Assembly: GCF_017348835.2 (NCBI RefSeq)
Contig: NZ_CP071375.1
DNA from: Escherichia coli
Lineage (GTDB): Bacteria; Pseudomonadota; Gammaproteobacteria; Enterobacterales; Enterobacteriaceae
Reading direction: 5' to 3' (one strand)
Length of the DNA: 64,000 nucleotides
The position numbers were made by a program, and so were the translations under genes. The notes beneath the pieces are model-generated. The model did not search any database and was not told the origin of the DNA. It was given only the letters and a program-made list of their open reading frames with translations. Shown here in pieces: positions 12,863 through 48,635 of this stretch (within the stretch, counting starts at the first letter, position 1; every line of letters starts with the position of its first letter).

Positions 12863-14047
12863 ATGACCAAACCTAATCATGAGCTTAGCCCGGCGCTAAT
12901 CGTGCTGATGTCTATCGCCACCGGTCTGGCGGTCGCCAGCAACTATTACGCCCAGCTATTGCTCGACACCATCGCGCGTAACTTTTCCCTTTCCGCCAGT
13001 TCGGCAGGCTTTATTGTTACCGCCGCGCAGTTGGGCTATGCCGCCGGTCTGCTGTTTCTTGTTCCCCTCGGTGATATGTTTGAACGCCGCCGCCTGATTG
13101 TCTCGATGACCTTACTGGCGGCATGCGGCATGTTGATTACCGCCAGCAGTCAGTCGCTGGCGATGATGATCCTCGGTACGGCATTAACCGGTTTATTCTC
13201 AGTCGTGGCACAAATTCTGGTTCCACTGGCAGCGACGCTGGCTTCACCGGACAAACGCGGCAAAGTGGTTGGCACCATTATGAGCGGTCTGCTGTTGGGG
13301 ATCTTGCTGGCACGAACCGTTGCCGGGTTACTGGCAAACCTCGGCGGCTGGCGCACCGTCTTTTGGGTTGCCTCGGTGTTAATGGCACTGATGGCGCTGG
13401 CATTATGGCGTGGTCTGCCACAAATGAAATCAGAAACCCACCTCAATTACCCACAGTTGTTGGGTTCCGTTTTCAGTATGTTTATCAGCAATAAGATCCT
13501 GCGCACCCGCGCGTTGCTGGGCTGCCTGACCTTTGCCAACTTCAGCATTCTCTGGACCTCAATGGCCTTTTTGCTTGCCGCTCCACCTTTTAACTACAGC
13601 GATGGTGTCATTGGTCTGTTTGGACTTGCGGGAGCTGCCGGAGCGTTGGGCGCTCGTCCAGCGGGCGGTTTTGCCGACAAGGGCAAATCGCACCACACAA
13701 CAACTTTCGGTCTGCTTCTGCTGTTACTTTCATGGCTGGCAATCTGGTTTGGTCACACTTCCGTACTGGCGTTGATTATCGGCATTCTGGTGCTGGACCT
13801 CACCGTACAGGGCGTGCATATCACTAACCAGACGGTAATTTATCGAATACATCCTGATGCGCGTAATCGCCTGACCGCAGGTTACATGACCAGCTACTTT
13901 ATTGGCGGTGCCGCCGGTTCGCTAATTTCAGCCTCAGCCTGGCAACATGGCGGTTGGGCTGGCGTTTGTCTGGCTGGCGCGACGATTGCCCTGGTTAACT
14001 TACTGGTCTGGTGGCGAGGTTTTCATCGTCAGGAAGCCGCAAATTAA
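12863..14047 (+). CDS. ygaY: MFS transporter, YgaY-like, apparently intact
   Basis: 394-aa uninterrupted ORF with 12-TMS-like hydropathy at the ygaX/ygaY position. Confidence 0.8.
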   Translation: MTKPNHELSPALIVLMSIATGLAVASNYYAQLLLDTIARNFSLSASSAGFIVTAAQLGYAAGLLFLVPLGDMFERRRLIVSMTLLAACGMLITASSQSLAMMILGTALTGLFSVVAQILVPLAATLASPDKRGKVVGTIMSGLLLGILLARTVAGLLANLGGWRTVFWVASVLMALMALALWRGLPQMKSETHLNYPQLLGSVFSMFISNKILRTRALLGCLTFANFSILWTSMAFLLAAPPFNYSDGVIGLFGLAGAAGALGARPAGGFADKGKSHHTTTFGLLLLLLSWLAIWFGHTSVLALIIGILVLDLTVQGVHITNQTVIYRIHPDARNRLTAGYMTSYFIGGAAGSLISASAWQHGGWAGVCLAGATIALVNLLVWWRGFHRQEAAN

Positions 14048-14170
14048 GCAATCAGCAACCGTTTTCGTGGCTTTACACTTATAAGGGTGTTAAGAAGCCC
14101 ATCAGTCTGATAAGGTTAAGATATTCATTCAGTCTATTTATAATATTAACAATCGTTAAGCGTACACTCT

Positions 14171-22057: not shown

Positions 22058-22204
22058 GGTCTTCTCGCAAGTCGAAAAATATGACGCTACTTTAGCGTAA
22101 TTGCTTGATTTTGTCGCTGATGGCGAAGGAGAAGAAAATTCAGGAAATGGATAAAGTAGTTATTTAGAAATGAGATATTTTTGAAGGAAATTTTTTGGAG
22201 AAGA

Positions 22205-22327
22205 TGGTGCATCCGGGAGGATGACTCACTGGCGTTCGCCCTTCGGGCCGTTGCTAAAGCAACGTTATCCTTCCTGGTGCCTGCGATTAATTCCGCTACC
22301 TCTTCGATATCTTCATTGCTGAAGATT
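22205..22327 (-). repeat. Structured spacer element, degenerate copy, 3' of the last tRNA-Arg
   Basis: Begins with a tRNA 3'-end-like tggtgcatccgggagga on the plus strand, then about 105 nt shared with the 22478..22612 element. Confidence 0.6.
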
Positions 22328-22404
22328 TCGGAGAATATGGTGCATCCGGGAGGATTCGAACCTCCGACCGCTCGGTTCGTAGCCGAGTACTCTATCCAGC
22401 TGAG
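22328..22404 (-). tRNA. argQ: tRNA-Arg (anticodon ACG)
   Basis: Reverse complement reads GCATCCGTAGCTCAGCTGGATAGAGTACTCGGCTACGAACCGAGCGGTCGGAGGTTCGAATCCTCCCGGATGCACCA. Confidence 0.9.
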
Positions 22405-22477
22405 CTACGGATGCATCGGGAAAATTTATTTTACTGCTGATATTGATATCGCTACTAAAGCCATATCAAGTAAGAGA

Positions 22478-22612
22478 TGGTGCACCAGGGAGGATTACTC
22501 GCCTTGCGGCTCGCCCTTCGGGCCGTTGCTGGCGCAACGTTATCCTCCCTGGTGCCTGCGGTTAATTCCGCTACCTCTTCGATATCTTCATTGCTGAAGA
22601 TTTCGGAGAATA
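22478..22612 (-). repeat. Structured spacer element with a perfect 13-bp inverted repeat and internal hairpins
   Basis: caccagggaggat ... atcctccctggtg enclosing a gcccttcgggc hairpin and gttgc/gcaac; ends tRNA-like (..cctccctggtgcacca on the transcript). Confidence 0.6.
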
Positions 22613-22689
22613 TGGTGCATCCGGGAGGATTCGAACCTCCGACCGCTCGGTTCGTAGCCGAGTACTCTATCCAGCTGAGCTACGGATGC
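22613..22689 (-). tRNA. argZ: tRNA-Arg (ACG)
   Basis: Identical 77-nt copy. Confidence 0.9.
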
Positions 22690-22751
22690 ATCGGGAAATT
22701 AATTTTACTGCTGATATTGATACCGCTACTAAAGCCATATCAAGTAAGAGA

Positions 22752-22828
22752 TGGTGCATCCGGGAGGATTCGAACCTCCGACCGCTCGGTTCGTAGCCGA
22801 GTACTCTATCCAGCTGAGCTACGGATGC
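22752..22828 (-). tRNA. argY: tRNA-Arg (ACG)
   Basis: Identical 77-nt copy. Confidence 0.9.
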
Positions 22829-22892
22829 ATCGGGAAACTTACTTTACTGCATATTTTTTGATACCGCTACTAAAGCCGTATCAAGTAAGAGA

Positions 22893-22969
22893 TGGTGCAT
22901 CCGGGAGGATTCGAACCTCCGACCGCTCGGTTCGTAGCCGAGTACTCTATCCAGCTGAGCTACGGATGC
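22893..22969 (-). tRNA. argV: tRNA-Arg (ACG)
   Basis: Identical 77-nt copy, 3 nt from the tRNA-Ser. Confidence 0.9.
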
Positions 22970-22972
22970 AAA

Positions 22973-46924: not shown

Positions 46925-46948
46925 TCTGGAGTTTGGCATCAGTCAAAA

Positions 46949-47368
46949 TCAAAGAAACCATTCCGGCTTAACGCCAAATCGGGCTGAAAGTGCCTTAATG
47001 TGGGATATTGTCAGGGATCGTTGTCCAGACAAAATCTGACTAACCAGGGATTTAGAGCCGATTTCGTTCTTCAAATCCGCATAGGTCAGATTATGTTGAT
47101 CAATCAACGTGCGAAGTAACGCCACGCCAACCGGCATTGCCGCAACGGCTTTGTCGAACTCTGCAAACTTTTCGTTGTTGTTTTCATACTCTGCAATGCG
47201 GCTCGCCAGAAAGTCGATAAGTGGATTGGTGTCATCTTCTTCAATCAAATATTCGACCAGTTCCAGTGCTTCACGATAATCATCTTCTGAGTCACTGCCT
47301 CCCAGAAAGGGGACTGCATTGACCAGTTCTCTTGTTGCTTTAACAGCGCGTGCAGCATTAGCAGTCAT
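46949..47368 (-). CDS. HigA-like antitoxin (XRE-type HTH at the C-terminus)
   Basis: 139-aa ORF resembling E. coli HigA (AVPFLGG...ALELVEYL...EFAEF...LLRTLIDQ...GSKSLVSQILSGQRSLT); overlaps the upstream toxin gene by 4 nt. Confidence 0.8.
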   Translation of the reverse strand: MTANAARAVKATRELVNAVPFLGGSDSEDDYREALELVEYLIEEDDTNPLIDFLASRIAEYENNNEKFAEFDKAVAAMPVGVALLRTLIDQHNLTYADLKNEIGSKSLVSQILSGQRSLTISHIKALSARFGVKPEWFL

Positions 47369-47676
47369 TCTTTGTTCTCTCTGTAGTAACGTGTCAGTTT
47401 GTCATACTCTGCGTGATTCGTTATGTGCTTCACAAAGAACCGCTTATTAACAAAGTTTATGTAGGCAATAACCCTAAGATTGTTCCCGCCGACATCCAGA
47501 ACGTACCATTTGTTGCGATATTTAAAATTGTCGAGGTTGGGAAACGCCGTTCGCATTTCTTCTGGCGTAGAAAAATCCGTTTCCTTAATAACCCGATACA
47601 ATGCCTGAAGAGCCAGAGCGTCGTTAGGATATTTACGCGCAGACTCTTCAAATGGCACTTTAGAAATGATGTGCAT
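47365..47676 (-). CDS. HigB-like mRNA interferase toxin (RelE/ParE superfamily)
   Basis: 103-aa ORF resembling E. coli HigB (MHIIS...KYP...FPNLDNFKY..K.YV.DVGGNNLRV...EYD); toxin-first order and 4-nt overlap with the antitoxin. Confidence 0.8.
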   Translation of the reverse strand: MHIISKVPFEESARKYPNDALALQALYRVIKETDFSTPEEMRTAFPNLDNFKYRNKWYVLDVGGNNLRVIAYINFVNKRFFVKHITNHAEYDKLTRYYRENKE

Positions 47677-47680
47677 TTTT

Positions 47681-47784
47681 AAGTTTTAACTTCCTTATAG
47701 TAAGTAAACAGCCACATCTGCGAGTTCTATCCTCATGTGTTCGGAAACTATAGCTCATCAAATCCAAGTTCACAATATGTAAAC
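47681..47784 (-). promoter_or_regulatory. Putative higBA-like promoter/operator region
   Basis: Minus-strand -35 ttgtga, 16-bp spacer, -10 tatagt; inverted repeats gttcaca-ata-tgtaaac (47768-47784) and aagtt-tt-aactt (47681-47692) overlap the -35 and RBS regions. Confidence 0.35.
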
Positions 47785-47837
47785 ACTTGCGCGTGATATA
47801 ATTACCCCCAAAATCCTCATAACCACTCTGCAAAAAG

Positions 47838-48611
47838 TCAGTTCTGATTCACCCCATCAAGCACATCCCCCTTTATCAAGCAACGCTGCGTCAGCGACAG
47901 ATCTTCCGTTTGTGTGTCGCGCCCGGCGATGGGTTTGAGGACGAGTTTACGGTTGGGGGTATAAGTAAAGCGCGTGAGCGCGGGATAGCTTAACTTGCCA
48001 AACCAGCCGTGAACACGCTGCCATTTGGCGTCTTTTACCTGATACAGACTGGTTATCCAGTAACCAGAATTAAACTGCATATCCAGCAATTGCGTGTGAC
48101 CATTGCCTTGTAAATCCAGCAAATCATCTACGCCAGTTTTGCTTGCAGTGTAGAATCCCCAGGGTTCAAAGACACAGGGACGGCCTTCGTGCGTGAACGT
48201 CATGAGGATTAAATGTGCATAGGGCGCCAGACCATTACCGGCACTTGGCAACCAGATAACCAGATCCTGAATGCCGTTACGATCCAGATCGGCGCGATAG
48301 AGCTGCCCTTTGCCCGCCATATTTGCCAGCAACCCCACTGGCACCGTCCAGGATTTACCCGCGCGGTCTTTAGCGGTTAATTGCCAGTAATCCTCTTCAT
48401 TTGGCATCTTCTCAAGCGTCACGCCAGCAACGCCGATTTTTCTAAAATGCCAAGTTTGCTCGGTATAATAAGGCATGGTCAGGAGAGGTTTCAGCGCCCG
48501 CTTTTGCGCATATTCGCTGCCACTCATTGGCAGATATTCGGTAAAGCTGGTGGCCTGTGCAGACTGCACTAAGCTCAATAAAAAAGCGCACATCCCTGTT
48601 CTGATGTTCAA
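47838..48611 (-). CDS. Exported protein of unknown function with Sec-type signal peptide and two DxDxNG-like repeat motifs
   Basis: 257-aa ORF; TTG start at 48611 or ATG at 48593; signal-like CAFLLSLVQSAQA; motifs ADLDRNGIQDLVIW and DLLDLQGNGHTQLLD; Trp-rich. Confidence 0.6.
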   Translation of the reverse strand: MNIRTGMCAFLLSLVQSAQATSFTEYLPMSGSEYAQKRALKPLLTMPYYTEQTWHFRKIGVAGVTLEKMPNEEDYWQLTAKDRAGKSWTVPVGLLANMAGKGQLYRADLDRNGIQDLVIWLPSAGNGLAPYAHLILMTFTHEGRPCVFEPWGFYTASKTGVDDLLDLQGNGHTQLLDMQFNSGYWITSLYQVKDAKWQRVHGWFGKLSYPALTRFTYTPNRKLVLKPIAGRDTQTEDLSLTQRCLIKGDVLDGVNQN

Positions 48612-48635
48612 TTCCCTGAATTCCCTGATGAAGAA

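Follow-up and report, generated by a model that had tools for sequence, protein, structure and literature searches.

The ygaY locus and its reading frame

The stretch of DNA analysed here, referred to as the window (64,000 nucleotides of Escherichia coli contig NZ_CP071375.1, assembly GCF_017348835.2), carries on its plus strand, at positions 12863–14047, a single open reading frame of 394 codons plus a stop, beginning with an ATG at 12863 and ending with the final base of the stop codon at 14047. Both the list of open reading frames and a reading of the sequence itself revealed no internal stop, and the coordinates, strand and length given in the preliminary description, which had reported a single uninterrupted frame of 394 amino acids at this place, were all confirmed. 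The frame follows proW-proX and is followed by ygaZ-ygaH-mprA(emrR)-emrA, in a K-12-like gene order. In the pig strains PE164 (China) and F2_81 (Australia), the DNA of which is 100% identical to the window at ygaY, the same frame is annotated in RefSeq as an 'MFS transporter' CDS with identical coordinates (WP_096220543.1).

That this frame might be open by mere chance, or might be an artefact of annotation, has almost no probability left and is already excluded by the evidence. Its product matches the Pfam family MFS_1 (PF07690) with 139.2 bits against a gathering cut-off of 33.4 (E=2e-40), and its homologues retrieved in the homologue search number in the thousands. Orthologues are kept across genera, with 92–97% identity in E. 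fergusonii, E. albertii, E. marmotae, Shigella, Citrobacter and Salmonella. The dN/dS ratio among nine E. coli ygaY alleles is about 0.03, a value that speaks for strong purifying selection on the gene. The AlphaFold (AF2) model, built from a 90-sequence alignment, is confident (mean pLDDT 94.2, pTM 0.92) and contains 12 TM helices, bearing out the 12-TMS-like topology that had been proposed at the outset. Taking the open reading frame, the Pfam match, the RefSeq CDS, the AF2 model and the Foldseek comparison described below together, we consider it highly probable that the frame is ygaY, a core gene of E. coli, present here as a normal uninterrupted allele that encodes an MFS secondary transporter of the YnfM family. 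The central points of this picture were already known, namely the pseudogene status of ygaY in K-12, the routine annotation of intact copies elsewhere and the family assignment in TCDB. Our additions are small ones: the exact lesion with its repeat context, the Cys88 polymorphism, the counts over 5426 genomes and the rare Pro32Leu substitution.

Flanking spacers and expression signals

The proX-ygaY spacer (12672–12862) measures 191 nt and holds one REP/BIME unit in both the window and K-12, while it extends to 291 nt with two such units in BL21(DE3) (L020:2985-3275) and several other strains. The unit of the window (12681–12758, an inverted repeat, no strand assigned) scores 76.4 bits with the REP-derived Rfam family naRNA4 (gathering score 59.5), includes an imperfect palindrome at 12682–12711 and probably acts as the 3' end of proU or as an insulator. 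This REP-derived match was the only one returned by Rfam upstream of ygaY, where neither a riboswitch nor an sRNA was detected. Likewise, a consensus scan revealed no convincing sigma-70 promoter upstream of the gene. Manual reading of positions 12760–12862 yielded promoter-like matches of at most 7/12 and no recognisable Shine-Dalgarno sequence before the ygaY start. An out-of-frame ATG located 13 nt 5' of this start opens an eight-codon mini-ORF (12850–12876; MNKNNDQT and a stop) that overlaps the ygaY start codon. It also begins without a recognisable Shine-Dalgarno sequence, and it may be meaningless or may be a feature of translational coupling or attenuation.

On the other side of the gene, the 123-nt ygaY-ygaZ spacer contains the sigma-70 promoter of the ygaZH operon (TTAAGA-17-TATAAT, 14116–14144, plus strand; 10/12 in the consensus scan), and genomic SELEX picked out the same sequence as an RpoD promoter that drives ygaZH constitutively (PMC3946193). 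The position of this promoter indicates that ygaY is a unit separate from ygaZH. In K-12, ygaY transcripts were reported to be low and to rise after osmotic shock, a rise ascribed to transcription running on from proU, and the ygaY region was found to touch the proU regulatory element via an H-NS bridge (PMC10656529; bioRxiv 10.64898/2026.02.10.705075).

Genomic background and allele mosaic

Starting at MG1655 coordinate 2,795,453, the window aligns colinearly with that genome, with about 98.4% identity over 47 kb. It differs from PE164 by 3 mismatches in 49,880 bp and is identical to F2_81 over 5 kb, and its background is that of a non-K-12, pig-associated clone. The preliminary description had also deduced a non-K-12 background, partly from an insertion between ascB and hycI. 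The divergence from MG1655, the near-identity to PE164 and the insertion itself, which proved to be real, all agree with that deduction. The insertion (1.67 kb, 46943–48614) is absent from both MG1655 and BL21(DE3) and encodes, all on the minus strand, an HTH antitoxin (46949–47368), its cognate HigB-family toxin (47365–47676) and a hypothetical protein of 257 amino acids that looks secreted (47838–48611). PE164 has it in the same arrangement and with the same annotation. Another local difference from MG1655 concerns the tRNA-Arg(ACG) array beside tRNA-Ser (22200–22970), the spacer lengths of which are unlike those of MG1655 (distances between successive tRNA-Arg starts of 141, 139 and 275 nt in PE164 versus 275, 139 and 275 nt in K-12). 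Because of this difference in spacing, the BLAST alignment of the window to K-12 breaks at the array.

At ygaY itself the identity to K-12 drops to 96.4%, compared to about 98.4% in the flanks. With respect to the O157:H7 allele, the gene of the window shows 8 differences that cluster at gene positions 258–294, and it equals K-12 across gene positions ~190–362 (window 13052–13224), a patch that holds both Cys88 and a perfect short repeat (see below). Judged from this distribution of differences, the ygaY of the window is a recombination mosaic composed of an O157:H7-like backbone and a short K-12-like patch, which means that recombination has carried the Cys88 patch between lineages. The common intact alleles, such as those of BL21(DE3) (WP_000165699.1) and O157:H7 (WP_000165714.1), both annotated as 'MFS transporter', share length and synteny with the window allele and 98–99% protein identity; they differ from it in having Pro32 and mostly Gly88, the latter with an imperfect 7-mer repeat.

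The K-12 lesion and its repeat context

The preliminary description had given the K-12 MG1655 locus as an interrupted transporter pseudogene, and the records are in agreement with it. In MG1655 (NC_000913.3) ygaY (b2681) is a pseudogene of 1178 bp at the same position, versus 1185 bp for the intact gene, and other K-12 records label it 'MFS transporter, frameshifted'. The locus was formerly split into two genes, ygaX (b2680) and ygaY (b2681; UniProt P76628), an annotation that arose because the remainder of the K-12 protein is readable in another frame. The K-12 gene occupies the same proX-ygaY-ygaZ locus as that of the window and has the same start and stop. No ORF identical to the intact one is present in MG1655, and pairwise alignment located its disruption in the only indel that separates the two sequences. 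At this point the window carries a perfect tandem direct repeat, GCGGCAT-GCGGCAT (13118–13131, plus strand; units at 13118–13124 and 13125–13131; gene positions 256–269, codons 86–90), where MG1655 b2681 has a single GCGGCAT, and the same site was compared through the junctions of ten alleles and through k-mer counts. The loss of 7 bp shifts the K-12 frame, and translation stops at codon 89, within TM3. When the missing 7-mer was put back, the K-12 gene encoded 394 amino acids with no stops and no further lesion, so that the pseudogene goes back to a single young event. The repaired K-12 protein differs from that of the window only at residues 32 and 210 (Pro32 and Asp210 versus Leu32 and Asn210), of which Asn210 is common to the window and O157:H7, position 210 being variable in the wider family.

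Replication slippage classically leaves its mark in this way, removing one unit from a perfect tandem repeat. We infer that the deletion arose by this route in the K-12 ancestor, on an allele of the Cys88 type. The 7-mer repeat is perfect only when codon 88 (13124–13126, plus strand) reads TGC (Cys), as it does in the window and also in K-12. Most E. coli have GGC (Gly88) and read GCAGCGGGCGGTAT or GCGGCAGGCGGCAT at the repeat site, an imperfect repeat; it is the G-to-T change in this codon that renders the 7-mer repeat perfect. The 48-mer specific for the perfect two-copy junction was found in 790 of the 5426 complete genomes (~15%). Since the family column at position 88 is variable (V/L/A/I/G/C), Cys88 is a neutral polymorphism that has incidentally created a deletion-prone sequence.

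A unit whose length is not a multiple of three, present in two perfect copies inside an open reading frame and with one natural collapse documented in K-12, could also be read as a phase-variation (contingency) switch that toggles ygaY by gain and loss of a unit. We consider this highly improbable, and the distribution of alleles effectively refutes it: known contingency loci have repeat numbers far higher than two, the collapse has been seen only in the clonal K-12 laboratory lineage, some 790 genomes hold exactly two copies, and in most strains the repeat is imperfect. In addition, a 55-mer query for a three-copy allele among the complete genomes returned none among the matches listed, which were merely the 790 two-copy genomes again, aligned in two adjoining segments that together cover 48 nt.

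Distribution of intact and disrupted alleles

A ygaY match is present in 5418 of the 5426 complete E. coli genomes, with a coverage of at least 80% in 5413 of them. Allele states were counted using junction-specific 41- and 48-mers together with two evenly spaced samples of a full-length search. The K-12 junction 41-mer, which is unable to seed on two-copy alleles (the longest common exact word being 25 nt), occurred in 353 genomes. All 60 carriers examined in an evenly spaced sample turned out to be K-12 derivatives, among them MG1655, W3110-type strains, BW25113, C600, DH1, JM109, MC4100, J53 and S17-1. An ungapped 1185-bp match, on the other hand, was obtained for 36/37 and 54/56 non-K-12 genomes in the two samples (~97%), and each of the ten non-K-12 alleles retrieved, including those of BL21(DE3) and O157:H7, is annotated as an intact CDS. 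These counts identify an intact ygaY as the norm of the species and K-12 as a lineage-specific exception. An intact copy such as the one pointed out in the preliminary description is therefore nothing special, K-12 being the oddity.

Sporadic disruptions were also encountered outside K-12, and they account for the exceptions in the two samples. In strain DX6 (L021:201-1384) the loss of 1 bp at gene position 347 of ygaY, beside an SNP, splits the gene into two 'MFS transporter' CDSs and may represent either a genuine frameshift or an error of long-read assembly. In strain PCP06021 (L011:3001-3463) a deletion runs from ygaY codon ~53 through ygaZ and fuses the remainder into a shortened ygaH, an independent loss of ygaY along with a subunit of the valine exporter.

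Family, fold and motifs

E. coli YgaY (P76628) is classified as TC 2.A.1.36.3, a member of the YnfM (acriflavin-sensitivity) family (PMC5417439). In addition to MFS_1, the protein passes the Pfam threshold for MFS_4 (YbfB type; 30.8 versus 26.3). The AF2 model arranges its helices as two sets of six separated by a short linker helix at residues 196–209. The MFS motif A, located in the loop between TM2 and TM3, has the form G-x-x-x-D-R/K-x-G-R-R/K. Residues 68–77 of YgaY read P-L-G-D-M-F-E-R-R-R, a variant form in which Glu replaces the glycine before the RR pair, and of the 89 relatives 87 retain D71, 74 retain R75 and 66 retain R76. The positions conserved family-wide include Y28-Y29-x-Q31-P32-L33-L34 (TM1), G70-D71...R75-R76-R77, R151 (TM5), D272, D312 (TM10) and R336 (TM11). 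With E. coli YnfM (b1596, TC 2.A.1.36.1) YgaY shares the Q-P motif of TM1 as well as motif A, and BLASTP aligns the two over 409 columns (YgaY residues 1–390) with 25% identity (73.6 bits, E=1e-18). YnfM is nonetheless a distant paralogue only, and the LysR-type regulator gene ynfL lies beside ynfM whereas ygaY has no adjacent regulator.

A Foldseek search of the PDB placed DHA1 antiporters on top, with SotB leading (TM-score 0.84–0.90), followed by MdfA and NorA. Overall, the closest solved folds are SotB (6KKK/6KKL), MdfA (4ZP0), NorA (8TTF) and EmrD (2GFP), with TM-scores of 0.79–0.90 over ~380–395 columns, although the sequence identity of YgaY to these DHA1 structures is only 15–17%. The YgaY family profile also recovered EmrD and SotB (E ~1e-14). 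In contrast, a single-sequence phmmer search of solved structures gave only weak and partial matches, the best of them to the N-terminal half of the glucose symporter GlcP; with a single protein as query the structure search is weak, and it took the profile of the family and the comparison of folds to go further. Antiporters of the DHA type typically display motif C (the Paulsen/Varela motif), G-x-x-x-G-P-x-x-G-G, in TM5. This motif is absent from TM5 of YgaY (residues 132–161, RGKVVGTIMSGLLLGILLARTVAGLLANLG), which is glycine-rich and has no G-P. All curated DHA1 models of NCBIfam scored far below their cut-offs (Bcr/CflA TIGR00710, 49 versus 200.9; SotB-like PRK03545, 62 versus 401; EmrD, 36 versus 479), and no NCBIfam equivalog model attained its own threshold. 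By the tests run, YgaY is not a member of DHA1 (TC 2.A.1.2), and the likeness of fold supports a similar way of working but not membership.

Among the homologues, the top match (P0001) is a protein of 596 amino acids in which residues ~98–300 are duplicated in tandem. It comes from a related enterobacterium on a 5.4-kb ENA metagenome contig and is most likely a chimera of metagenome assembly rather than a true 18-TM protein.

A rare substitution in TM1

Codon 32 of the window allele (12956–12958, plus strand) is CTA, and comparison of alleles, orthologues and family members shows it to be a rare missense change to Leu in the TM1 motif Y-Y-x-Q-P-L-L, at the Pro that is otherwise nearly invariant. 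Pro32 is found in all 14 close orthologues and in every other E. coli allele examined. A 41-mer centred on the SNP occurred in 2/5426 complete genomes, both from pigs, and the exact Leu32 protein was found on 22 contigs of a large collection, a number indicating that Leu32 marks a small but real clone and not a sequencing error.

The reference to a 'functional copy' in the preliminary description went beyond an intact frame, and the presence of Leu32 leaves it a supposition. It is possible, if doubtful, that the frame is intact and its protein impaired or altered, the substitution removing a helix-breaking proline and creating a cryptic loss-of-function or changed-specificity allele, i.e. another route to ygaY loss beside the K-12 frameshift. 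The conservation of the site speaks for it, with Pro in 86/89 family members (35–95% identity), Leu in none of them, and Pro also at the aligned position of YnfM and EmrD. The same is true of the rarity of the variant, of the sporadic losses of the gene in K-12, DX6 and PCP06021, and of the AF2 model, where TM1 is broken at residues 26–33, exactly around position 32, structure prediction as such being unsuited to judging what a single substitution like Pro32Leu does. On the other hand, A, S or T occupies this position in three family members, and the allele persists, with no second lesion, in a clone sampled in both China and Australia and on 22 contigs.

A broader proposal, which we judge somewhat unlikely, would combine the two substitutions. 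Pro32Leu would inactivate or re-specify YgaY in a globally distributed pig clone, the gene having been lost repeatedly by different routes, and the perfect repeat created by Gly88Cys would predispose ~15% of E. coli to a frameshift of the K-12 type. If this were true, the routes of loss would comprise the repeat collapse of K-12, the 1-bp deletion of DX6, the deletion of PCP06021 and the present missense change, and the 'intact' frame of the window would not be a working copy.

The possible role of YgaY in transport

As to the role of the normal protein, proton-coupled export of a small molecule is the likeliest, with odds that appear to us about even. Such a protein would operate by rocker-switch alternating access with the proton gradient as its driver, motif A (G70-D71...R75-R76-R77) serving as a putative cytoplasmic gate and three conserved residues within the membrane, R151, D312 and R336, possibly taking part in the coupling to protons or substrate. 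The direction would most likely be that of export, with a small metabolite or a xenobiotic as cargo, as suggested by the closest folds, those of the DHA1 exporters SotB, MdfA and NorA, and by the glutarate export of the paralogue YnfM. In E. coli BL21(DE3) the latter was characterized as a CCCP-sensitive, proton-dependent glutarate exporter, the deletion of ynfM alone abolished extracellular glutarate, and in Corynebacterium YnfM was employed for the export of dicarboxylates (PMC12622518). In BL21(DE3) ygaY is intact. The loss of glutarate export in the ynfM deletion mutant despite this intact gene implies that the substrate of YnfM is not transferable to YgaY, and it would argue against redundancy between the two proteins under the conditions of the BL21(DE3) glutarate test.

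The reverse direction, with YgaY as an importer (a proton symporter) of, e.g., a metal or a nutrient, seems unlikely to us, even though a member of the YnfM family, CuiT (STM1486/PA5030), was reported to be a copper importer (PMC13101709). The lack of the antiporter motif C in TM5 would be compatible with import, and so would the phmmer match to the symporter GlcP, the best among solved structures, which covers the N-terminal half only. When the whole protein is considered, however, the fold and profile comparisons favour the exporters SotB, MdfA, NorA and EmrD, and the full-length alignments in NCBIfam are to efflux families (SotB-like PRK03545, Cmx/CmrA and Bcr/CflA), all of them below cut-off. 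YnfM, the nearest E. coli paralogue for which data exist, is an exporter as well.

The genomic neighbourhoods of P0124, P0125 and P0126, the nearest relatives outside the enterobacteria (47–55% identity), offered no hint of a substrate, their neighbours being mutually unrelated. We found no ygaY phenotype in the literature, where the gene figures as a K-12 pseudogene, as a neutral site for integration or as a point of contact with H-NS. A literature search under STM2812, which we take to be the locus tag of the Salmonella orthologue, returned nothing.

Implications

Overall, K-12 is not a typical reference where ygaY is concerned, and nothing about this gene, deletions of which serve as neutral pseudogene controls, can be learned from knockout collections or fitness screens made in K-12. 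The K-12 lesion, a collapse of a 7-bp repeat, is trivially repairable. Work on this orphan transporter of the YnfM family needs a non-K-12 or a repaired allele, and functional studies should avoid the Leu32 variant and choose an allele with Pro32, for instance from BL21(DE3) or O157:H7.
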